A stretch of DNA of 64,000 nucleotides from an uncultured Gemmatimonadales bacterium (GTDB lineage Bacteria > Gemmatimonadota > Gemmatimonadetes > Gemmatimonadales > JACORV01), in NCBI GenBank assembly GCA_963806755.1, contig CAWDZR010000016.1, positions 247,249-311,248 on the forward strand, read 5' to 3'. Within the stretch, counting starts at the first letter, position 1. Each line of letters starts with the position of its first letter. Of this stretch, positions 4,392 through 63,952 are shown in pieces. The translations under genes and the position numbers were made by a program. The notes under the pieces are model-generated. The model worked only from the letters and a program-made list of their open reading frames with translations. It did no database searches and had not been told where the DNA came from.

Positions 4392-4409
4392 GCGCGGGGG
4401 GCGGCGGAC

Positions 4410-6182
4410 GTGCGTAGCCTGCGCGCCCTGCTGCCCTACTACCGGCCCTATCTGGCGCGCATGGCGGTCGGGCTGCTGACGATCGCCGTCGCCAACGTGT
4501 TCACCATGGCCGCGCCCGCGTTCCTGCAGCGCGGCGTGGACGCGCTCGGCAAGCCGGGGGCGGCGCACGTGCTGGCCCTCATGGCCGGCGCCCTGGTGGG
4601 GGTCACCGTCCTGGCGGGCGCCGCCCGGTTCGGGATGCGCCAGCTCCTGAACGCGGTGAGCCGCTGGATGGAGTACGACCTCCGCAACGCGCTGTACCGG
4701 CACCTCGTGACCCTGCAGCCGTCCTTCTACCACCGCACGCCGACCGGCGACATCATGGCGCGCGCCACCAACGACCTGTCGGCCGTGCGGATGGCGGCGG
4801 GCCCCGCGGTGATGTACCTGACCGACACCGTCACCCGCGCGGTGTTCGCGATTCCGCTGATGGTGCGGATCGACTGGCGGCTCACGGTGCTCGGCCTCAT
4901 CCCGCTGCTGGGGATGCCGACGGTCATGGTCCTGCTCGGTCGCACGATCCACCACCGCTTCGAGGCGGTGCAGGAGCACTTCGGGACCCTCACCACGCAG
5001 GCGCACGAGAGCCTGAGCGGCGTGCGCGTGGTGCGCGCCTACCGCCAGGAGGCGAGCGAGACCCGGAAGTTCGCGGCCCTGAACCTCGAGTACCTGCGCC
5101 GCAACATGCGCCTCGCCCGCACCTACGGCGCGCTGTTTCCGCTGATCATGTTCTTCGGCGGCGCCGGGGGCGTGCTGACCCTGTGGTTCGGCTCCCTGCT
5201 GGTGGTGCGCGGCACCGTCACGCTGGGGGAGTACATCGCGTTCACCACCTACCTGGTCCTCCTGGTGTGGCCGATGATCGCGCTCGGCTGGGTCATCAAC
5301 CTGTTCGAGCGCGGCGGCGCGTCCATGGACCGCATCCAGCAGCTCCTGAACGAGCGGCCGGCCATCGCCGACCCGCCGGCGCCCGGCGCGCTGCCGCCGG
5401 CGTCCGGCGGGCGCGCGGTCGAGTTCCGGGACGTGTGGTTCCGCTACCCGGTGCCGCGGCGCACCGACGGCAAGGGCGGGGACCGCGGCTGGGCGCTGGA
5501 GGGCGTGTCGTTCGCCGCCTCCGCCGGCGCGTGGGTCGCGGTGGTCGGCGCCACCGGGTCCGGCAAGACCACGCTGGTCGAGCTGCTCGCCCGGCTCGCC
5601 GACCCCGACCGCGGCGAGATCCTGCTCGACGGCGTACCGCTCCGGGCGCTCGCGCTCGCCGATCTCCGGCGCGCGGTGGGCTTCGTGCCCCAGGAGACGT
5701 TCCTGTTCTCCCAGACGATCGGGGAGAACATCGCGCTCGGCGTGCTGGACCAGGCCGCCGCGGAAGGGGCGGCGCGGGTGGCGCAGCTCCACGAGACCAT
5801 CGCCGCGTTCCCCGCGGGCTACGAGACCATGCTGGGGGAGCGCGGCATCAACCTCTCGGGCGGCCAGCGCCAGCGCACGGCGCTGGCCCGCGCCCTGGCC
5901 CGCCGCCCCGACGTGGTCGTGCTCGACGACGCGCTCTCGGCCGTGGACACCGACACCGAAGCCCAGATCCTGCGCCAGCTCAAGCGGTCGCTGGTGGGCG
6001 TCACCACGCTGGTCGTCTCGCACCGCATCACCGCCGTCCGCGACGCCGACCTCATCGTGGTGCTCGACGGCGGGCGCATCGTGGAGACCGGCAGGCACGA
6101 CGAGCTGTTCGAGCGGCGGGGACGGTACTGGCAATTGCTGCGACGGCAACAGCTGGAGGAATCTCTCGAGGAAGCGAGTTGA
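4410..6182 (+). CDS. ABC exporter, fused permease-ATPase (MsbA/multidrug type)
   Basis: ORF 4410..6182 (GTG start). The N-terminal half is a six-TM-like domain. Motifs: Walker A GATGSGKTT, signature LSGGQRQRTALARAL, Walker B VVVLDDALSAVD and an H-loop SHR. Confidence 0.92.
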   Translation: MRSLRALLPYYRPYLARMAVGLLTIAVANVFTMAAPAFLQRGVDALGKPGAAHVLALMAGALVGVTVLAGAARFGMRQLLNAVSRWMEYDLRNALYRHLVTLQPSFYHRTPTGDIMARATNDLSAVRMAAGPAVMYLTDTVTRAVFAIPLMVRIDWRLTVLGLIPLLGMPTVMVLLGRTIHHRFEAVQEHFGTLTTQAHESLSGVRVVRAYRQEASETRKFAALNLEYLRRNMRLARTYGALFPLIMFFGGAGGVLTLWFGSLLVVRGTVTLGEYIAFTTYLVLLVWPMIALGWVINLFERGGASMDRIQQLLNERPAIADPPAPGALPPASGGRAVEFRDVWFRYPVPRRTDGKGGDRGWALEGVSFAASAGAWVAVVGATGSGKTTLVELLARLADPDRGEILLDGVPLRALALADLRRAVGFVPQETFLFSQTIGENIALGVLDQAAAEGAARVAQLHETIAAFPAGYETMLGERGINLSGGQRQRTALARALARRPDVVVLDDALSAVDTDTEAQILRQLKRSLVGVTTLVVSHRITAVRDADLIVVLDGGRIVETGRHDELFERRGRYWQLLRRQQLEESLEEAS

Positions 6183-16685: not shown

Positions 16686-18020
16686 CCCTCGAGGCGCTCG
16701 GCGAGGTAGGCGGCCAGGCCGCGCGGCGTCCACCCGCTCCTGCGCCAGCGTGTCGCGGTGCCGCACCGTGACCGTCCCGTCCTGCGTGGTCTGGCCGTCC
16801 ACGGTGATCGCGAACGGCGTGCCCGCCTCGTCCTGGCGGCGGTAGCGGCGCCCGATCGAGCCGCCGTCGTCGTAGAAGGCCGTGAACCGACCGCGCAGGT
16901 CGTCGTAGATCTTCTGGGCGATCTCCGGCATCCCGTCCTTCTTCACCAGCGGCAGCACCGCCGCCTTGATCGGCGCCAGCGCCGGCTTGAGGCGCAGCAC
17001 CACCCGCGTCTCGCCCTCCACCTGCCTCCTCGTCGTACGCGTCGCACAGCAGCGCCAGCGCCGTGCGGTCCGCGCCCACCGACGTCTCCACGATGTACGG
17101 GAGGTAGCGCTCGTTCCGCTCCTGGTCGAAGTACTCGAGCTTCTTGCCCGACGCCTGCTGGTGCCGCGACAGGTCGAAGTCCGTGCGGTTGTGGATCCCC
17201 TCGAACTCGTTCCACCCGAACGGGAACTCGTACTCGATGTCGTACGCCGCCTTGGCGTAGTGCGCCAGCTCGTTCGCCTCGTGCTGGTGGAAGCGCAGCC
17301 GCTCCGGCTCGCAGCCCGAGCCCCACGTGCCACTGCATCCGCTCGTTCCGCCAGAACTCGAACCACTCCTCGTCCGTGCCCGGCCGCACGAAGAACTGCA
17401 TCTCCATCTGCTCGAACTCGCGGGTGCGGAAGATGAAGTTCCCCGGCGTGATCTCGTTGCGGAACGCCTTGCCGATCTGCGCGATGCCGAACGGGATCTT
17501 CTGCCGCGAGCCCTGCAGCACGTTGAGGTAGTTGACGTAGATCCCCTGCGCCGTCTCCGGCCGCAGGTAGACCACCGCCGCGTCCTCCTCGACCGGGCCC
17601 ATGAACGTCTTGAACATCAGGTTGAACATCCGCGGCGCGGTGAGCGAGCCGCGCGTCCCGCACGCCGGGCACTGCCCGTCGGGCTGCCCCGGCGTCCCCT
17701 TGATCCGCGGGTCGTCGGCCCGGAAGCGCTGCTTGCAGTGCTTGCAGTCCACCAGCGGATCGGTGAAGCCCGCCACGTGGCCCGACGCCTCCCACACCTT
17801 CGGCGACATCAGGATGCCCGCGTCGAGCCCCTCGATGTCGTCGCGCGCGTGGACCATCGCGCTTCCACCACCGGTCCTTGATGTTGCGCTTCAGCTCGAC
17901 GCCCAGCGGGCCGTAGTCCCAGACCGAGCCGAGCCCGCCGTAGATCTCCGAGGACTGAAAGACGAAGCCGCGCCGCTTCGCCAGCGACACCAGCTTCTCC
18001 ATGCGATCGTTGTCCGCCAT
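16682..18020 (-). pseudogene. glyQS: Glycine--tRNA ligase (homodimeric GlyQS type), frame broken about 4 times (probably sequence errors)
   Basis: The conserved GlyRS sequence is spread over three frames. [52 protein letters not shown] is in ORF 16488..18158. [37 protein letters not shown] is in ORF 16943..17857. [47 protein letters not shown] is in the frame of ORF 16372..17091. [30 protein letters not shown] returns to the first frame, and the tail [11 protein letters not shown] lies in another frame. Shifts are near 17858, 17315, 17027 and 16716. Confidence 0.85.
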
Positions 18021-18192
18021 GAGCCCTGCTGCATGAGAGCACGAGAATGAACAGCCGGAGGGGGAAGAAACTAGCCCCGGCCCGAGGGGGGAGCAAGCGC
18101 GCGCGGAGGTCGCCGCCCGCGCAGGCACCGCCGGGCGCCCGGACCCCGGCCGCCCCACCGGGAGCCATCGTAACCGATTTCAAGCCAGAGAC

Positions 18193-18221
18193 TTGCGCAT
18201 TTCGCAACAGCTGCCTATCTT
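18193..18221 (+). promoter_or_regulatory. Sigma70-like promoter of the PqqD/kinase/Cys-rich cassette; the transcript would be nearly leaderless
   Basis: TTGCGC (18193-18198), an exactly 17-nt spacer, then TATCTT (18216-18221). ATG 18230 lies only 8 nt after the -10. The -35 sits inside the palindrome TTGCG-n5-CGCAA (18193-18207). Confidence 0.45.
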
Positions 18222-18229
18222 CGCGATCC

Positions 18230-18508
18230 ATGGCGATACAGGGCGCTCAGCGCACGCCCACGGCGCGCCCCGATGTAGTCCTCAGGCGAGTGGGATCCGA
18301 GTGGGTCCTGTACGACGCCGCCAGGGAACGCGCCCACGTCTTGAACCTCACCGCCGCCGTCATCTGGACTTACTGCGACGGCACGTTCCTGCCGTCGGAC
18401 ATCGCGGACGCGATCGCCCGGGAAGTGCCCGGTCTCGACGTGGCGCGCATCGGCACCGACATCCACGACGTGCTGCGCCGGTTCGCCGACGAGGGGCTGC
18501 TGCAATAG
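18230..18508 (+). CDS. PqqD-family peptide chaperone (RiPP-recognition-element-like), 92 aa
   Basis: In-frame part of ORF 18047..18508 from ATG 18230. PDVVLRRVGSEWVLYDAARERAHVLNLTAAVIWTYCDGTFLPSDIADAIAREVPGLDVARIGTDIHDVLRRFADEGLL follows the PqqD pattern (x-vl-d..sg..h.LN.tA..iW..cDG..t..ei...l...). Confidence 0.85.
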   Translation: MAIQGAQRTPTARPDVVLRRVGSEWVLYDAARERAHVLNLTAAVIWTYCDGTFLPSDIADAIAREVPGLDVARIGTDIHDVLRRFADEGLLQ

Positions 18509-19368
18509 CGCTCCGGCGGCGGATCGCCGTCGCGCCCCTGGTCCTGGAGTTCGCGAGCGACGACGGGATCGCCGCCCGGGCGCTGGAGGCCCTGTACCAC
18601 GCGGCGCCGGCCAGCACCGCTCCACCGACCCTGCGCTACGAGCTCCGGCGCGCCGGGCCGCGGCCGGGGGACGGATACGAGGCGGCGAGTCCCGCGCAGC
18701 CGGTGTTCGGGCCCACGACCCTCGCGGAGGCCTGGGCCTTCCTCGAATGGCGCGCGACCGAGGACGTGCTCAACGCCGCGACGCCGGACTGCGTGTTCAT
18801 GCATGCGGCGGCGGCGGTGCTGGGCGGGCGCATGGTGCTGCTGGTGGGCGACGCCGGGGCGGGCAAGTCCACGCTCCTCGCTCACCTGCTGTTGCGGGGA
18901 CATGGAGTACTCGGCGACGACGTGGTGCGATTCGCAACGCGCGACGGGTTGTTCTCGGCCGTCGGGCGCTCGGTCAAGCTGGATGATAAGGCGTTGCGCG
19001 GCATGCCGTTGATTGCGGCGCTGTGTGCCGCGGGGACCATCGGAACGCTTCTTGCCGCAGGATGCTACTACGTGAGCCCTGCAGCGGTGCGGAGAGACTG
19101 GCAAGCCGAGGCGGCGCGGCCTTGGGGGGTCGTGCTGCTCGAGGCCTCGTCGCGTGACGGGGCCAGCGGCGTGCGGCGGGCGAGCGCGGGCGAGGCCGCG
19201 GTCCGGTTCGCGCAGCGGCTGCTCGGGGGCGCCGGCCTGCCGGCGCCGGCGCGGGCCGAGGCGACGGTGCGCCTGCTGGAGAGCCTGGCGGACGTGGCGG
19301 CGTATCGCGCCGTCGGCCGCGATCCGGCGCGCGTCGCGGAGGCGCTGGAACGGGAGGCGATGACATGA
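18505..19368 (+). CDS. HPr-kinase-related P-loop kinase (HprK C-terminal-domain-like); start codon unresolved
   Basis: Frame of ORF 18193..19368. The sequence FMHAAAAVLGGRMVLLVGDAGAGKSTLLAHLLLRGHGVLGDDVVRF parallels HprK (GxSGxGKS..L..rGH.LvaDD). Walker A is at 18847-18873. There is no ATG, GTG or TTG between 18193 and 18800. ATA 18505 overlaps the PqqD stop (ATAG). About 287 aa if it starts there. Confidence 0.75.
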   Translation: MALRRRIAVAPLVLEFASDDGIAARALEALYHAAPASTAPPTLRYELRRAGPRPGDGYEAASPAQPVFGPTTLAEAWAFLEWRATEDVLNAATPDCVFMHAAAAVLGGRMVLLVGDAGAGKSTLLAHLLLRGHGVLGDDVVRFATRDGLFSAVGRSVKLDDKALRGMPLIAALCAAGTIGTLLAAGCYYVSPAAVRRDWQAEAARPWGVVLLEASSRDGASGVRRASAGEAAVRFAQRLLGGAGLPAPARAEATVRLLESLADVAAYRAVGRDPARVAEALEREAMT

Positions 19369-19892
19369 GCCTGCGCACCCTGGGCCTGCTGTCGGGCGGC
19401 GTCAGCCGCCGCGAGATGCTCGCGGCGCTGGCGCGCTGGAGCGTCCCGACGGTATTGACCATGACGCTGATCACGCGCGAGGCGCGGGCCGCGGCCTCCT
19501 GCCCGCCGTGCACCAAGAAGACCGGCGGCGTGTGCCGCGCGTGCACGATGAACCAGATCCTCAACTGCCAGTGCGAGCCGTGCCTCGGGGCGCCGTACTG
19601 TGCCAACGGCGCACGCGCGTCCGTGTCGCGGCCGGGGGCGATGACGGCGCCGTCGAGCGGGCTCGTCCCCGGCGGGACGCCGTCGCCGCTGTCGCCGTCC
19701 AACCCGGACCTGCTGAGCCCGTACTTCCGCACGCTGCGCAACCAGCCCGCGTTCTCGGGGCAGAACCCATTCGACCGCAGGCCCGGTGCCTTCGGCGGAT
19801 CCGGACTCCTCGGGGTGCCAGCCGATACGGGGCTGCGCTCGCGGGGTGGCCTGTACGATCGGCTGCGCCCTGATGCCCGGAGGCCGTTCTGA
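19365..19892 (+). CDS. Orphan cysteine-rich protein with twin-arginine-type leader and P/G/S-rich tail (175 aa)
   Basis: ORF 19365..19892. The ATG overlaps the kinase stop (ATGA). GC3 is very high. The leader is MSLRTLGLLSGGVSRREMLAALARWSVPTVLTMTLITREARA/AAS. The core is C-x2-C-x7-C-x2-C-x7-C-x-C-x2-C-x5-C (nt 19500-19601). The tail is low-complexity and rich in proline. Confidence 0.75.
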   Translation: MSLRTLGLLSGGVSRREMLAALARWSVPTVLTMTLITREARAAASCPPCTKKTGGVCRACTMNQILNCQCEPCLGAPYCANGARASVSRPGAMTAPSSGLVPGGTPSPLSPSNPDLLSPYFRTLRNQPAFSGQNPFDRRPGAFGGSGLLGVPADTGLRSRGGLYDRLRPDARRPF

Positions 19893-19963: not shown

Positions 19964-22270
19964 GTGCTGCGCGTCCTGCTGCTCCATTGGAAGATCGTCG
20001 GCCTGGTCACGCTCCTGGTCGCGGTGGGGGCCTTCTCCTCGGCCCGGCGGGCCGTCCCGCGCTACCGCTCGGACGCCTCCTTCCAGGTGGGCTCGAAGAA
20101 GTACGCCGCGCCGCGCCTCGACGAGCCGCAGGTCAACGAGCTCGACATCAAGACCGATCCGGTCCTGTCCGAAGCCCTGATCCTCAAGACGCAGAACCTG
20201 GCGCTGGCGGTGGCGGACTCGCTCGGCCTGCAGCTCCGGCTGCTCGAGGACCGGGTGCCCCGCGGCAGCGTGCTCGACGACGCGCACGTGGCCCTGGCGG
20301 CGCCCAACGACACGTTCCTGCTCTACCTCAAGGGCCCGGCCGGGTGGGAAGTGCGGGACGCGCACGGGCGGGTGCTGGACGCGGGGACGTACGACACGCC
20401 GGTGCGGGACTCGGCGCGGGGGTTCGCCTTCACGGTCCACCCCTCCGCCGTGCCGCGGGTGCTCCGCTTCGCGATCATCTCGCCGGTGGCGGCCGCCAAC
20501 GAGGTGCGCGGCGGGCTGGGGTTCGACATCCAGGAGGGGACGACGGTCGTGGGGGCGTACTACGACGGCGCCGACCCCTCCCTCGCCCCCGACATCCTGA
20601 ACGAGGCGCTCGCCGTCCTGCGGTGGACCGGCGTGGCGCGCCTGCAGGAGATGTCGGTGCAGCGCGAGGCGTTCCTCAAGAGCTCGCTCGACGAGGCGGG
20701 GCATCAGTACCGGCAGGCGCTGGCGGCGCTCCAGCAGTACAAGGAGGCGGAGCACACCACCGACCTCACGGCCGAAGAGCAGGCCCTGCTCAACTCGGTG
20801 CAGATGTTCGACCGCGAGAAGCAGCAGGAACGGGAGGACCTCGCCCTGCTGCAAAGCATCCTCGACCAGTCGAGCGAGGGGAACATCACGCTCGAGATGC
20901 TCAACCGGCTGGCGGCGATGCCGAACATCGACAAGAACACGGCCATCGCCTTCCAGATGCAGAACCTGCTGAAGCTGTACGACGACCGCCGCAGCCTCAC
21001 CGCGGGCACGCTCGGCCTGCGGGAGGACAACCCGCAGGTCCAGGCGCTCGACCAGCGGATCGTGCAGGCCGGGCGGGCGCTGCGGCAGGCCGCGCAGGCC
21101 AGCGTCCAGAGCATGCAGGCGGACATCGCGGCCCTCGACCAGCGCATCGGCACGCTCCGTACCCAGCTCGCGACCTATCCGGGCAAGGAGACGCAGATCG
21201 GGCAGCTGGAGCTGGACGCGGCCCTGTACAACGACACCTACCGCTATCTGCTGACCCAGCTCCAGGCCGCGCAGATCAGCTCGGCCACGATCGCGCCCTA
21301 TGTGGACGTGGTCGAATCGGCGACGGTGGCCGCGCCGATCGGCGTGAGCACGCGCCAGAAGGTGACGATCGGGCTGCTGGTGGGCCTGCTGCTGGGGGTG
21401 GTGGCGGCGTTCTTCCTCGAGTACCTCGACCAGACGATCAAGTCGGCGGTGGACGTGGAGCGGGCGCTGGAGACCCCGGTGCTCGGCCTCATCCCGATCG
21501 ATCCGCGCAGCGAGCGCGACGGGCGGCGCGGCGGCCGCCGCCGGGCGGTCATTCCGCTCATCACCAGCGCCGCCCCCGACGACCCGACGAGCGAGGCGTA
21601 CCGGGCCCTGCGCACCAACGTCACGTTCGTGAGCGCCGAGGAGCGGGCGCTGCAGCTTGTGTGCATCACGAGCCCGGGGCCCGGCGAGGGGAAGAGCACG
21701 ACCGCGGCCAACCTGGCCATCACGCTGGCGCAGCAGGGGACGCACACCCTGCTGGTGGACGCGGACCTGCGGCGGCCCATCGTGCACAAGGCCTTCAACC
21801 TCGTGCAGGAGCCAGGGCTCACCGACATTCTCGTGGGCACGGCCACCCTGCGCGAGGCCGTGCGGCCCAACGTGATCCCCAACCTCGACGTGCTCCCGGG
21901 AGGCGCGCTGCCGCCCAACCCCTCCGAGCTGCTGGGCTCCGAGGCGATGCGCCGCCTGACCGCGGAGCTGCGGACGCAGTACCAGAGCGTCATCTTCGAC
22001 ACGCCGCCGGCGCTGGCCGTGACCGATGCCACGGTGCTCGGGGCGGGCGCGGACGGCGTCATCCTCGTGCTCCGCGCCGGCGAGACCGACGAGCTCGCGG
22101 CCCAGCGCGCGGTCGAGGTGTTCCGCCGCGTGCAGGTGCGCATCGCGGGCACGGTCCTGAACGCCGTCGAGAAGCAGCGGGTGCGCTACTACCAGTACTA
22201 CAACTACAGCCGGGAGTCGCCGCAGGGGCGGCTGGCGGGGTGGCGGCACAAGATCGCGAGCTGGCTGTAG
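19964..22270 (+). CDS. Polysaccharide co-polymerase fused to BY-kinase (GumC/Wzc-type tyrosine autokinase)
   Basis: ORF 19964..22270 (GTG). Features: N-terminal TM plus a Wzz-like coiled-coil region, a second TM, Walker A SPGPGEGKSTTAANLA, Walker A' LLVDADLRRP, VIFDTPP, and a C-terminal tyrosine cluster RYYQYYNYS. Confidence 0.9.
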   Translation: MLRVLLLHWKIVGLVTLLVAVGAFSSARRAVPRYRSDASFQVGSKKYAAPRLDEPQVNELDIKTDPVLSEALILKTQNLALAVADSLGLQLRLLEDRVPRGSVLDDAHVALAAPNDTFLLYLKGPAGWEVRDAHGRVLDAGTYDTPVRDSARGFAFTVHPSAVPRVLRFAIISPVAAANEVRGGLGFDIQEGTTVVGAYYDGADPSLAPDILNEALAVLRWTGVARLQEMSVQREAFLKSSLDEAGHQYRQALAALQQYKEAEHTTDLTAEEQALLNSVQMFDREKQQEREDLALLQSILDQSSEGNITLEMLNRLAAMPNIDKNTAIAFQMQNLLKLYDDRRSLTAGTLGLREDNPQVQALDQRIVQAGRALRQAAQASVQSMQADIAALDQRIGTLRTQLATYPGKETQIGQLELDAALYNDTYRYLLTQLQAAQISSATIAPYVDVVESATVAAPIGVSTRQKVTIGLLVGLLLGVVAAFFLEYLDQTIKSAVDVERALETPVLGLIPIDPRSERDGRRGGRRRAVIPLITSAAPDDPTSEAYRALRTNVTFVSAEERALQLVCITSPGPGEGKSTTAANLAITLAQQGTHTLLVDADLRRPIVHKAFNLVQEPGLTDILVGTATLREAVRPNVIPNLDVLPGGALPPNPSELLGSEAMRRLTAELRTQYQSVIFDTPPALAVTDATVLGAGADGVILVLRAGETDELAAQRAVEVFRRVQVRIAGTVLNAVEKQRVRYYQYYNYSRESPQGRLAGWRHKIASWL

Positions 22271-23696: not shown

Positions 23697-24602
23697 CTAG
23701 GCCGCGGCCCGGAGGCCGGCGCTCGCGAGCAGCTCCGCGACGCGCCGCCGCTGGCGCTCGTCGAGCGGCACGAGCGGCGGCCGCACCGGACCGCCGGCGA
23801 GGCCGACCGCGTCCATCGCCGCCTTCACGCCGGGCACGCCCAGCTCGCCCACGATCTCGCGCGCCAGGGGATTGAGCTGTTCCTGGAGCGCGCCGGCCGC
23901 GCGCCGGTCGTCGGCGCGGAACGCCCGGAACAGCGCAACGCAGCGCTCGGCGGCGAAGCAGGCGACGGCCAGCACTCCGCCGTCGGCCCCGAGCTCGAGG
24001 GCCGGATAGAACTGCGTGCCGGCACCCACCAGGGCCTTGAGCCGCGGCGCCGCCGCGCGGTAGTTCGCCATGACCTTCAGGTCGCCCGACGACTCCTTGA
24101 AGCCCATCACCCGCTCGTGGTCCGCCAGCGCGCGGATCACACCCTCGTGCAGCATGACGTGCGTGTACTTGGGCATGTTGTAGATCAGCACCGGCACGGG
24201 GCTGGCGTCGGCGACCCGCAGGTAGTGGTCGGTCAGCGCCGCGGGCGTCAGCGTCGGACCGAAGTAGGCCGGCGGGCGCACCAGGACCGCGTCCGCGCCC
24301 GCCGCGGCCGCGTCCTCGGTGGCGCGCACCGTCGCCCGCGTCGATTCGGCGCCGGTGCCCGAGATCAGCCACCGGTCCTCCGGCACCACCTCCCGTAGCC
24401 ATTCCACCAGGCGCGCGCGCTCGCCGTCGTCGAGCAGCGGCCCCTCCCCTGTGGTGCCCGACACCACGATCCCCTGCGCCCCCGCCCGGAGGAGGTCCCG
24501 CACCACGGCGCGCAGCGCCACCGGCGCGACGTTGCCGGTCTCGCCGTCGAAGGGCGTCGTCACCGGCACCAGCACGCCCTGCAGCGTCTCCGGAGGCTTC
24601 AT
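23697..24602 (-). CDS. dapA: 4-hydroxy-tetrahydrodipicolinate synthase family (DapA/DHDPS-like aldolase)
   Basis: ORF 23697..24602. VPVTTPF, VSGTTGEGPLL, YNMP and FKESSGD (Schiff-base Lys region) are present. Confidence 0.85.
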   Translation of the reverse strand: MKPPETLQGVLVPVTTPFDGETGNVAPVALRAVVRDLLRAGAQGIVVSGTTGEGPLLDDGERARLVEWLREVVPEDRWLISGTGAESTRATVRATEDAAAAGADAVLVRPPAYFGPTLTPAALTDHYLRVADASPVPVLIYNMPKYTHVMLHEGVIRALADHERVMGFKESSGDLKVMANYRAAAPRLKALVGAGTQFYPALELGADGGVLAVACFAAERCVALFRAFRADDRRAAGALQEQLNPLAREIVGELGVPGVKAAMDAVGLAGGPVRPPLVPLDERQRRRVAELLASAGLRAAA

Positions 24603-25795
24603 GAGGGCAGCATGCTCGACAGGTCGTCCGTGAATCCCTCGGGCCGCTCGGGCTCCGGCGCCTCCGGCGGCGGCGCGGCGCCCTCGGGGACCTCGGCCGG
24701 ACCCTTCACCCGCGCCGTCATCCGCGACTTCCGCCGGAAGGTCCTCGCCTGCAGCTCGAAATCCGACGGGTTCGAGGAGTTGGCCAGCGCGGTGTCATAC
24801 TCGACGATGTCGTTGGTCACCAGCTCCATGAGGTGCTGGTCGAACGTCTGCATCCCGTACTGCTCCCGCCCCTCGGCGATGAACTCGCGGATCTCGGAGG
24901 TGCGGTTCTGGTCCAGGATCAGGTCCCGGATCGTCGCCGTGACGATCATGATCTCCAGGGCCGCCACCCGCCCGTGCCCGTCCTTGCGCCGCAGCAGCCG
25001 CTGCGACACCACCGCGTGCAGCGCATCGGCCAGCCGCACCCGCACGATGTCCTGCTCCTCGGGCGGGAACATGGCGATGATGCGGCCGATGGTGGTCGTG
25101 GCGTCGGGCGTGTGGAGCGTGGACACCAGCAGGTGCCCGGTCTCCGACGCCTTCATCGCCGTGTCGATCGTCTCCGCGTCGCGCATCTCCCCGATCAGGA
25201 TCACGTCGGGGTCCTGCCGCAGCGCCGCGCGCAGCCCGCTGCGGAACCCCTCGGTGTCGGTGCCGATCTCGCGCTGGGTGAGGGAGCAGTTGATGTCGCG
25301 GTGCAGGAACTCGATCGGGTTCTCCAGCGTGATGATGTGCTTCTGCTGCGACCGGTTGATGCAGTCGATCATCGCGGCCATCGTGGAGCTCTTGCCGCTG
25401 CCGGTGACCCCGGTGACCAGGATCATCCCGCGCTCGGCGGCCGCCACCGTGGACAGCACCGGCGGCAGGTGCAGCGACTCGAACGTCGGCACCTCGAAGG
25501 GAATGACCCGCATCACGATCATGAAGGAGGAGCGCTGCCGGAGGATGTTGACGCGGAACCGCCCGATCCCGGGCGCGCCCCACGAGCAGTCGTAGTCCTG
25601 GATCTTGTCGATCCGCGCCTTGTCCTCGACGCCGGGGATGAACTGCAGCGCGATCGCCTTGGTCTGCTCGGGCGTGAGGCGCTGCTTCGTCAGCGGGACC
25701 AGCTTGCCGTCGATGCGGGCACGGAAGACGTCGCCCGCCTTGATGTGCAGGTCGGACGCGCCGCGGTCCACCGCCGCCTTGATGATCTTCTCCAT
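24599..25795 (-). CDS. pilT: Type IV pilus retraction ATPase PilT (with acidic/proline-rich C-terminal tail)
   Basis: ORF 24599..25795. ASDLHIKAG, Walker A GVTGSGKSST, ITLENPIEF, ALRQDPDVILIGEMRD and TGHLLVSTLHT are present. The stop overlaps the dapA start (ATGA). Confidence 0.92.
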   Translation of the reverse strand: MEKIIKAAVDRGASDLHIKAGDVFRARIDGKLVPLTKQRLTPEQTKAIALQFIPGVEDKARIDKIQDYDCSWGAPGIGRFRVNILRQRSSFMIVMRVIPFEVPTFESLHLPPVLSTVAAAERGMILVTGVTGSGKSSTMAAMIDCINRSQQKHIITLENPIEFLHRDINCSLTQREIGTDTEGFRSGLRAALRQDPDVILIGEMRDAETIDTAMKASETGHLLVSTLHTPDATTTIGRIIAMFPPEEQDIVRVRLADALHAVVSQRLLRRKDGHGRVAALEIMIVTATIRDLILDQNRTSEIREFIAEGREQYGMQTFDQHLMELVTNDIVEYDTALANSSNPSDFELQARTFRRKSRMTARVKGPAEVPEGAAPPPEAPEPERPEGFTDDLSSMLPS

Positions 25796-55076: not shown

Positions 55077-63871
<8,795 letters not shown>

Positions 63872-63952
63872 GATCCGTCCTTCGGGCAGCGCAAAAGGCC
63901 CCGGTGCGGTGGGGCATCAACCTGCGATAGCGAACGTCGTGCGTAGCCAGAC

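Follow-up and report, generated by a model that had tools for sequence, protein, structure and literature searches.

A PqqD/HprK-type kinase operon ending in wzc in Gemmatimonadota: a candidate LPP-like maturation system for a Cys-rich protein

What might a PqqD-family protein and an HPr-kinase-like protein be doing together just upstream of an exopolysaccharide (EPS) tyrosine kinase gene? The question is raised by a 64,000-nt stretch (hereafter the window; 72% G+C) of contig CAWDZR010000016.1 from an uncultured Gemmatimonadales bacterium, whose nearest relatives are all Gemmatimonadales or Gemmatimonadota metagenome-assembled genomes. On its + strand, a PqqD-family recognition element for peptides that are made on the ribosome and modified after translation (RiPPs), an HprK/PEPCK-fold kinase, a 175-aa Cys-rich protein (ORF3) and a Wzc-type tyrosine autokinase are encoded by one four-gene operon. 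The initial annotation regarded the first three genes as a candidate uncharacterised peptide-modification cassette with ORF3 as its candidate substrate or a secreted product, and all six of the sequence features it listed are found at the positions given. We find that a PqqD-type RiPP recognition element (RRE), an HprK/PEPCK-fold kinase with intact motifs and a pre-protein with a WxxPxV leader are invariably linked. By a modest degree, we consider it probable from these sequence patterns that the operon serves to mature a linear phosphorylated peptide or protein, as a diderm-adapted system similar to that of the linear polyphosphorylated peptides (LPPs) of Bacillota, described in May 2026 in Nat Commun (PMC13381572).

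The operon and its candidate substrate

The comparison set consisted of 16 loci, namely the window, 14 genome loci (L002-L015) and one more metagenome locus (L034). In all 15 of the other Gemmatimonadota loci the gene order is the same (glyS <- / PqqD, kinase, ORF3, Wzc -> / <- purA, dapA, pilT), and wzc directly follows ORF3 in 13/13 loci of sufficient length. Because this order is kept across the 14 genome loci and the metagenome locus, the cassette is ancient and fixed within the lineage. All three cassette ORFs are intact and under purifying selection across a phylum-level clade, with identities down to 45-50% (57-77% for PqqD across 13 loci). The G+C content at third codon positions (GC3) is 0.88 at 18230-18508, 0.88-0.94 in the kinase frame at about 18508-19368, and 0.92 at 19365-19892.

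The assignment of the first protein to the PqqD family was confirmed by its match to Pfam PF05402 over all 67 profile positions (1-67); the score is 39.7 bits, where the gathering cut-off stands at 23.4. Its best NCBIfam matches, all under cut-off, are the lasso B1 model (top, 23.8 bits) and the Scm and PQQ PqqD models, the ScmD match being weak at 22 bits; in the PDB, the top sequence matches are PqqD, TfuB1 and TbiB1, all of them weak.

For the second protein, the HPr-kinase relationship proposed initially was borne out by motifs and predicted fold, whereas profile searches placed it less clearly. The motifs GDAGAGKST and LGDDVV are present in the window sequence, and among 19 homologues the H, GxGKS, GDD and RSxKLD positions are invariant. 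An AlphaFold (AF2) model built from these homologues reached a predicted local distance difference test (pLDDT) score of 85.6, and Foldseek matched it to ATP-dependent PEPCK (E 1e-6) and to the HprK/P catalytic domain 1kkl (E 2e-5), so that, as modelled, the protein has the HprK/PEPCK P-loop fold. With Pfam Hpr_kinase_C it scored 26.7 bits, under the gathering cut-off of 33.3, and it has weak matches to FomB and PhnN; relatives match PF27840 (ScmC).

Such profile matches might suggest that the cassette is what remains of a decayed lasso-peptide cluster, functionless now, which kept a B1-type RRE and a tailoring kinase after losing its cyclase and protease: lasso B1 is the top NCBIfam model of PqqD, and HprK kinases do serve as lasso tailoring enzymes. 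We find this scarcely credible, as three intact ORFs with high GC3, kept by purifying selection over a phylum-level clade to 45-50% identity behind a conserved promoter, are not what a remnant would show. As annotated initially, no Asn-synthetase-like cyclase, transglutaminase-like B2 protease, radical-SAM or nucleotidyltransferase gene was found in either the operon or the syntenic loci.

The GC3 of ORF3 and its 230 homologues, all of them metagenomic or from Gemmatimonadota and none with a Pfam domain, indicate that it is a real gene, in agreement with the initial annotation. It is coupled to the kinase gene by a 4-nt overlap (ATGA in the window, NTGA in 16/16 loci). In the family layout, M-x(10-12)-[ST]RRE[ML]L is followed by x3-A-R-W-[ST]-V-P-T-V-x-T, a basic c-region, A-x-A and Ser45, then by an 8-Cys module, a variable Pro/Gly/Gln tail and a terminal GLYDRLRPD..RRP(F). 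Among 42 sequences R24, W25, P28, S45 and all eight Cys are invariant, and S45 is the sole invariant Ser/Thr, which makes it, by analogy with known kinase substrates, the predicted phosphorylation site. By inspection, the N-terminus shows the elements of a twin-arginine translocation (Tat) signal, namely VSRREML, ..WSVPTVLTMTL.., TREAR with a basic 'Sec-avoidance' c-region, and AAA. However, with R24, W25 and P28 invariant, the h-region is conserved well beyond what a plain signal peptide would show. An AF2 model from the 42 sequences predicts a helix at residues 15-42, then a beta-hairpin (50-59) and a short helix (62-66), these last two at pLDDT of about 70, with low pLDDT in the tail.

The same features could be read more conservatively. 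ORF3 might be an ordinary Tat-exported Cys-rich metalloprotein, or an envelope accessory of Wzc, which is merely co-transcribed, with PqqD and the kinase acting on some other target, for example an unlinked peptide, a sugar or a lipid intermediate. With its RR motif, basic c-region and AxA, the leader does look like a normal Tat signal, and two CxxC pairs on the predicted hairpin resemble a metal knuckle. Moreover, the HprK/PEPCK fold includes small-molecule kinases, and the weak FomB and PhnN matches and the PEPCK top fold match would fit one. Nevertheless, we regard this explanation as unlikely, as it accounts neither for the invariant WxxPxV in the h-region, nor for the universal 4-nt coupling of kinase and ORF3, nor for the leader-bearing ORFs at distant loci described below.

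Leaders at distant PqqD/kinase cassettes

A profile searched against 1.8 billion representative proteins returned only 11 close representatives, which are the cassette's own clade. They are followed at 60-80 bits by a diffuse tier, of which 40 proteins were sampled, all matching TIGR04352 ('HprK-related kinase A') to some degree. Genomic context was recovered for ten distant relatives, eight of them with intact DNA 5' of PqqD, and in 8/8 of these an adjacent same-strand ORF encodes an RR-type leader with AxA, so the idea that homologous kinase/PqqD pairs would have a comparable third gene held at every such outgroup locus. The loci fall into three groups (Table 1), namely canonical HPr-rel-A cassettes in Sphingomonas and Vibrio, a clade with small peptides, and an MNIO fusion. 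The cores of the adjacent ORFs are mutually unrelated, being Cys-rich, Gly/Ser-rich, Pro/Ala-rich or Lys-rich. RiPP precursor families are marked by just such a conserved leader joined to a hypervariable core. Sampling of canonical HPr-rel-A cassettes was extended further, with two alignments that were too divergent for a pattern scan and a metagenome scan that gave three short loci.

Five of the eight distant leaders contain AYVxPVV (YxxPxV) 17-18 residues before AxA, with a Ser at +1 to +4 after it. A composite pattern of RR-x-h-h, 2-12 residues, [YW]xxPx[LVIAFY], 6-25 residues and AxA was sought in all DNA compared and found in 20 out of 5,275 open frames, which total 765,000 residues; every match adjoins a PqqD-kinase pair. 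The invariant WxxPxV, the RR-leader ORFs at the outgroup loci and the uniqueness of this pattern together support the initial choice of ORF3 as the best candidate substrate.

Table 1. Features of the operon in the window, and ORFs adjacent to distant PqqD/kinase pairs
Feature or locus	Position	Strand	Description
Promoter	18193-18221	+	-35 TTGCGC 18193-18198, 17-nt spacer, -10 TATCTT 18216-18221
PqqD-family RRE (peptide chaperone)	18230-18508	+	92 aa; PF05402
HprK/PEPCK-fold P-loop kinase	18505-19368 (about)	+	About 283-287 aa; Walker A GDAGAGKST; metal motif GDD
ORF3 leader, aa 1-44	19365-19496	+	SRREML (RR 19407-19412); W25-S-V-P28-T-V30 19437-19454; basic c-region; AAA (alignments A2, A5)
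ORF3 Ser45 and 8-Cys module	19497-19601	+	S45 19497-19499; C-P-P-C-x7-C-x2-C-x7-C-x-C-x2-C-x5-C
ORF3 variable tail	19602-19892	+	Pro/Gly/Ser-rich, disordered; C-terminal GLYDRLRPD..RRPF kept, about 19848-19889
Wzc-type polysaccharide co-polymerase / BY tyrosine autokinase	19964-22270	+	768 aa; last operon gene
L016, Sphingomonas plasmid			Adjacent ORF of 161 aa, TSRRMLMLGAVGASTVIAVRPALAQ; canonical TIGR04353 and TIGR04352 proteins, NTP_transf_5
L018, Vibrio plasmid			Adjacent ORF of 274 aa, SRRRFIRSAAISSPILLSIKSPSAWA, then Cys-rich region; PqqD-like ORF, HprK-related kinase A, NTP_transf_5
L019, L020, L021, L032, L033, metagenomes			ORFs of 59-89 aa, e.g. SRRSLLRRGAKVAYVAPVVIAAMKVDSAFA followed by SASGG...; some also with 2-oxoglutarate (2OG) oxygenase and/or NTP_transf_5
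L026, metagenome			A pair of ORFs in tandem, each about 70 aa; MNIO-HprK fusion protein, NTP_transf_5

Several details of these distant loci may be recorded separately. At L026 (349-4726), an MbnB/TglH-type MNIO domain (PF05114, 106 bits) and an HprK-like region are fused in the 801-aa protein P0373, which thus joins MNIO chemistry to an HprK-type kinase on one polypeptide; the two tandem ORFs carry RR leaders. The soil metagenome loci L024 (3-2916) and L031 (1-3488) have a long Gly/Ser-repeat ORF 5' of PqqD whose N-terminus is lost at the contig end; at L024 a hexapeptide acyltransferase gene follows the kinase and a DegT-type aminotransferase gene lies further on, hinting at sugar chemistry on that branch. 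The PqqD-like ORF of L018 is unannotated and had no family match. At L032 (3002-3265, - strand) a second ORF with an RR...AYVAPAV...AFA leader lies downstream of the kinase, on the strand opposite to it, and runs off the contig end. Several precursors per cluster are typical of RiPPs.

In the LPP-like reading of the Gemmatimonadota operon, PqqD would dock in the cytoplasm on the WxxPxV of the ORF3 leader and offer the leader/core junction to the kinase, which would phosphorylate, perhaps polyphosphorylate, Ser45, much as LppK acts on core Ser3 and PadeK and PsmK act on lasso precursors. The leader would also serve as a twin-arginine-type signal (RR, weakly hydrophobic h-region, basic c-region, AxA), so that export could proceed by the general Tat (or Sec) pathway, with the leader cut at AxA by the housekeeping signal peptidase I. 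Such a general export route would account for the absence of dedicated type I signal peptidase (SpI), MsbA and B2 genes. The mature product may be an envelope protein tipped with phospho-Ser, in which an 8-Cys module, metal-binding or disulfide-knotted, precedes a disordered tail that ends in a conserved C-terminal motif; it probably acts with Wzc-dependent polysaccharide assembly. The family and fold assignments, conservation, motifs and gene-neighbour counts are observed, whereas we infer that PqqD binds the leader, that ORF3 is modified and at which residue, how it is exported, and any role it has with Wzc.

Several observations weigh against this reading. ORF3 is, at 175 aa and with a folded-looking Cys module, rather a protein than a peptide; it matched no curated Tat-signal hidden Markov model (HMM), and its AF2 model is of low overall confidence (pLDDT 53). 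A tblastn search with five NTP_transf_5 (PF14907) proteins as queries gave no match in either the window or the Gemmatimonadota loci. No significant profile-HMM homology was detected between the ORF3 leader and the distant leaders in either direction (E 0.08-4), one search running from ORF3 leaders to outgroup ORFs and the other from small-peptide leaders to the ORFs found in the window, the Gemmatimonadota loci, L016, L018 and L026; the claim is therefore limited to a shared motif and gene position, without homology. The conserved kinase N-terminus (RR[IV]AVAP..LEF) has no ATG, GTG or TTG in 9/16 loci and a canonical start in the other seven. Finally, the housekeeping flanks of the cassette are equally syntenic within Gemmatimonadota, and so synteny alone is no proof of functional coupling, especially to Wzc.

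A further possibility is that PqqD is a signal-peptide 'proofreading' chaperone, comparable to TorD, DmsD or NapD, which would retain the Tat leader until metal is in place in the Cys module, with the P-loop protein as a release ATPase or regulator. Cofactor-bearing Tat substrates often have dedicated leader-binding chaperones, the candidate docking motif of PqqD lies inside a signal-like leader, and the operon encodes neither a leader peptidase nor an exporter. However, among the outgroup partners are peptides of 59-89 aa whose cores, rich in Gly/Ser, Pro/Ala or Lys, are incapable of cofactor binding, the catalytic residues of the kinase are fully conserved, and the characterised homologues PadeK, PsmK and LppK are true Ser kinases. 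As such, we give proofreading little credence.

The link to EPS and tyrosine-kinase signalling put forward initially holds as far as the gene linkage to wzc goes, but it is confined to vertical synteny in one phylum. With operon linkage to wzc in 13/13 loci, it might be argued that the PqqD/kinase pair regulates the adjacent BY-kinase, for instance by phosphorylating a Ser of Wzc or of some regulator, and that ORF3 is a periplasmic Wzc modulator; HprK/P is, after all, a regulatory protein kinase/phosphorylase. Against this, no Wzc occurs in any of the distant (outgroup) cassettes, RREs bind peptide leaders and Wzc has no such leader, and the equal synteny of the housekeeping flanks makes the Wzc linkage unspecific, which leaves regulation of Wzc a poor candidate, with very little in its favour. 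The absence of Wzc from all eight distant loci at which RR-leader ORFs with unrelated cores accompany the pair also bears on the metalloprotein explanation, which leaves these ORFs unaccounted for.

If the LPP-like reading is extended, PqqD/HprK-kinase cassettes from several Gram-negative phyla, HPr-rel-A included, might constitute one unrecognised class of ribosomal products, in which the leader would be both a Tat signal and an RRE ligand (RR...[Y/W]xxPxV...AxA-Ser) and the junction Ser would be phosphorylated before export and leader cleavage by the general machinery, the Gemmatimonadota version being a phospho-Ser-tipped 8-Cys envelope protein wired to Wzc. We offer this broader proposal only tentatively, and think it more apt to fail than to hold. 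Under it, the phosphate may be an attachment point for a glycan, in analogy with PsmN-type phosphoglycosylation, which could lead to protein-anchored or protein-primed exopolysaccharide.

Promoter, kinase start and assembly quality

The promoter-like element noted initially was supported by comparison. In a 14-locus alignment (A3), TTG[C/T]GC-N17-TATCTT and an ATG 8 nt on are essentially invariant and the intergenic remainder is unalignable. Because the hexamers and the ATG are nearly invariant amid otherwise variable intergenic DNA, the element is very probably the operon promoter, even though a generic sigma-70 consensus scan of the region found no match. The pqqD ATG of the window likewise lies 8 nt past the TATCTT hexamer, which implies a leaderless or near-leaderless pqqD mRNA, to judge from the alignment. 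An Rfam scan of the operon gave no match. A further conserved box, TAACCGA(A/T) with an invariant TAA, is located at about 18170-18179, some 15 nt 5' of the -35 hexamer. On the opposite strand (18060-18100), CTTGC-N17-TA(A/G)TTT stands 5' of the divergent glyS and suggests the same promoter type for that gene.

The initial annotation had taken both junctions within the cassette, ATAG and ATGA, as 4-nt overlaps implying coupled translation. The ATGA junction stood, but at the PqqD/kinase junction (ATAG) the ATA would be a non-canonical start. The kinase frame contains no ATG, GTG or TTG between 18301 and 18703, and for this reason the public annotation gives a shortened 221-aa kinase from GTG 18703 (P0003); gene calling likewise shortens the protein to 231 aa in L034. 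Homologous kinases open with M/V-RRIAVAP-x-VLEFASDD, and the same segment is found in-frame in the window 3-5 codons past the PqqD stop, so that the N-terminus RRIAVAP..LEF is both conserved and coding. The kinase frame is -1 relative to PqqD in 16/16 loci. A programmed -1 frameshift joining PqqD to the kinase was considered and judged unlikely, there being no slippery heptamer and a P-site codon that cannot re-pair. By comparison of the 16 loci, near-cognate initiation or termination-reinitiation seems more plausible, because 12/16 loci have an ATA that overlaps the PqqD stop, and a Shine-Dalgarno-like box (GAGGG/GAAGG) is located 8 nt upstream. Conserved non-canonical initiation or termination-reinitiation may therefore operate at 18490-18545 and at the same junction in L002-L015 and L034, and coupled translation there is plausible.

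The quality of the assembly has a bearing on such an unusual start. In the window, glyS (16722-18020, - strand) is spread over three frames. Compared with the intact L003 orthologue of 444 aa, it shifts frame near 17861, 17314 and 17024; as glycyl-tRNA synthetase is essential, these are most likely assembly indel errors. On the same strand, rpoC (55080-59375, with a separate 153-aa ORF at 59369-59827) and rpoB (59831-62779 and 62780-63916) also look split, which fits further assembly indels. The split glyS, rpoB and rpoC therefore indicate that indel errors are present in the assembly. The three cassette ORFs align with their homologues at full length and in frame, and the absent kinase start is a substitution pattern common to other loci, without an indel. 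An identical 1.6-kb contig occurs in a separate assembly of run ERR12035932, for which the read set is possibly the same.

Downstream, the gene annotated initially as a Wzc/GumC BY-kinase was confirmed as such, matching TIGR01007 at 181.7 bits (cut-off 108) and having Wzz, GNVR and AAA_31 domains and a C-terminal RYYQYYNY Tyr cluster; its start, GTG 19964, is 71 nt past the ORF3 stop. The pilT gene of the window (24599-25795) lies just past dapA. A type IV minor-pilin block is found between wzc and purA in L010 (13888-18000), L012 (5039-7298) and L034 (10978-15075), and the interpretation of the wzc-purA insert genes of four relatives as EPS genes was rejected, as they encode type IV minor pilins (N_methyl, GspH, PilX_N).

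Comparison with known systems

No account of the cassette was found in the literature on HprK-related kinases, on NTP_transf_5 with PqqD or on twin-arginine RiPP leaders. The description 'uncharacterised' given by the initial annotation thus applies to the cassette itself, but it needs qualification in that a functionally equivalent system, that of the Bacillota LPPs, has been published. A full match to any characterised system is lacking, with three of the five LPP core genes missing and the HPr-rel-A cut-offs failed.

The nearest curated relatives are the NCBIfam HPr-rel-A families (TIGR04352 and TIGR04353), to which the initial annotation had tentatively referred the pair. They show the same PqqD-then-kinase arrangement, TIGR04352 is the best-matching model of the kinase, and the HPr-rel-A examples L016 and L018 likewise have an adjacent ORF with an RR-type leader. 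However, the kinase reached 53.3 bits against a cut-off of 200 on TIGR04352, over profile positions 63-165 only (Sphingomonas control, 228), and PqqD had no match to TIGR04353 at E<=0.1 (cut-off 35 bits; Sphingomonas control, 60 bits). As both cut-offs failed, the cassette is outside the curated HPr-rel-A equivalogs, contrary to that suggestion. In addition, it lacks NTP_transf_5, the usual partner in canonical HPr-rel-A and in LPP clusters, and its candidate substrate gene is 3' of the kinase, versus 5' of PqqD in HPr-rel-A. If the broader proposal is true, the HPr-rel-A cassettes, long orphans and annotated in thousands of genomes, would nevertheless gain a class of candidate substrates.

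The same pairing is seen in SynChlorMet (HprK-like ScmC with PqqD-like ScmD), to which PqqD has its weak ScmD match and relatives their ScmC matches, but SynChlorMet includes radical-SAM/SPASM enzymes, which the cassette lacks. In the paeninodin and pseudomycoidin lasso clusters, the kinases PadeK, ThcoK and PsmK are HprK homologues that phosphorylate a precursor Ser before leader removal, with an RRE in the cluster. Phosphorylation of lasso precursors by PsmK and PadeK has been reported, as have the essential DD residues of PsmK and the addition of hexoses onto the phosphate of lasso precursors by PsmN, which is of the NTP_transf type (PMC6993621). In contrast to these clusters, the operon contains no cyclase, B2 protease or ABC exporter; moreover, the phosphosite in lasso peptides is the C-terminal Ser, and the C-terminus of ORF3 is RRPF.

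Bufferins (BufA/B/C; PNAS 2024) are Cys-rich, protein-sized RiPPs in which a general secretion signal replaces a dedicated exporter (PMC11626156). They are similar to ORF3 in having a Cys-rich, protein-sized precursor with a signal as leader and an RRE-type partner domain, and their product, a periplasmic metal-binding protein, may be counted as a further likeness. They differ in using a Sec signal instead of an RR-type signal and MNIO thiooxazole chemistry without a kinase. Should our proposal be true, the cassette would be a second RiPP-like pathway, after the Sec-dependent bufferins, that reuses a general secretion signal as leader, with the RRE docking motif within the h-region.

The closest functional parallel is offered by the LPPs. 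Their clusters encode LppB, a discrete RRE; LppK, which is an HprK-like kinase; LppN, an NTP-transferase that is uncharacterised; LppS, a signal peptidase of SpI type; and the MsbA-like exporter LppD. Their precursors (LppA), 35-200 aa long, combine a conserved leader (YxxPxVLxHQxIxFETxxS) with a variable core; LppK adds several phosphates to core Ser3, and LppS cuts off the leader (PMC13381572). Furthermore, [Y/W]xxPx[L/V/I/A/F/Y] is the motif recognised by discrete lasso RREs, LPP clusters lie inside capsular-polysaccharide loci, with a same-strain polysaccharide tyrosine autokinase gene used as reference in quantitative PCR, and LPPs and paeninodins are reported to be restricted to Bacillota (PMC13381572). 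The W-S-V-P-T-V of ORF3 and the A-Y-V-x-P-V-V of the small peptides both fit this consensus exactly, and the W or Y of the motif lies 17-20 residues before the predicted cleavage site, comparable to LPP, with a Ser at +1 to +4 past the site.

Compared by published description, LPP clusters and the cassette therefore have in common an HprK-like kinase accompanied by a discrete RRE, a precursor of 35-200 aa whose conserved leader carries [Y/W]xxPxV, a Ser within 1-3 residues of the leader/core junction, a variable core, leader removal by a type-I-signal-peptidase-type enzyme (predicted for the cassette), and capsule or EPS genes nearby. Unlike LPP clusters, the cassette has no NTP-transferase (LppN), dedicated SpI peptidase (LppS) or MsbA exporter (LppD), which are three of the five core genes. 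The nearest MsbA-like ABC exporter gene of the window (4392-6179, + strand; ABC_membrane and ABC_tran) is 12 kb upstream and has no link to the cassette. The cassette leader has a twin-arginine architecture and lacks VLxHQxIxFET, the core consists of a conserved 8-Cys module and a disordered tail, and the host belongs to Gemmatimonadota. If the LPP-like reading is true, LPP chemistry, that is, RRE-guided Ser polyphosphorylation, would extend beyond Bacillota into diderm phyla, and a recurrent, unexplained tie between phosphopeptides and capsule/EPS tyrosine-kinase loci would come into view. To summarize, the cassette appears to work like an LPP system and yet to be distinct from it, with a leader that would serve as both signal and RRE ligand and a protein-sized, Cys-rich core.

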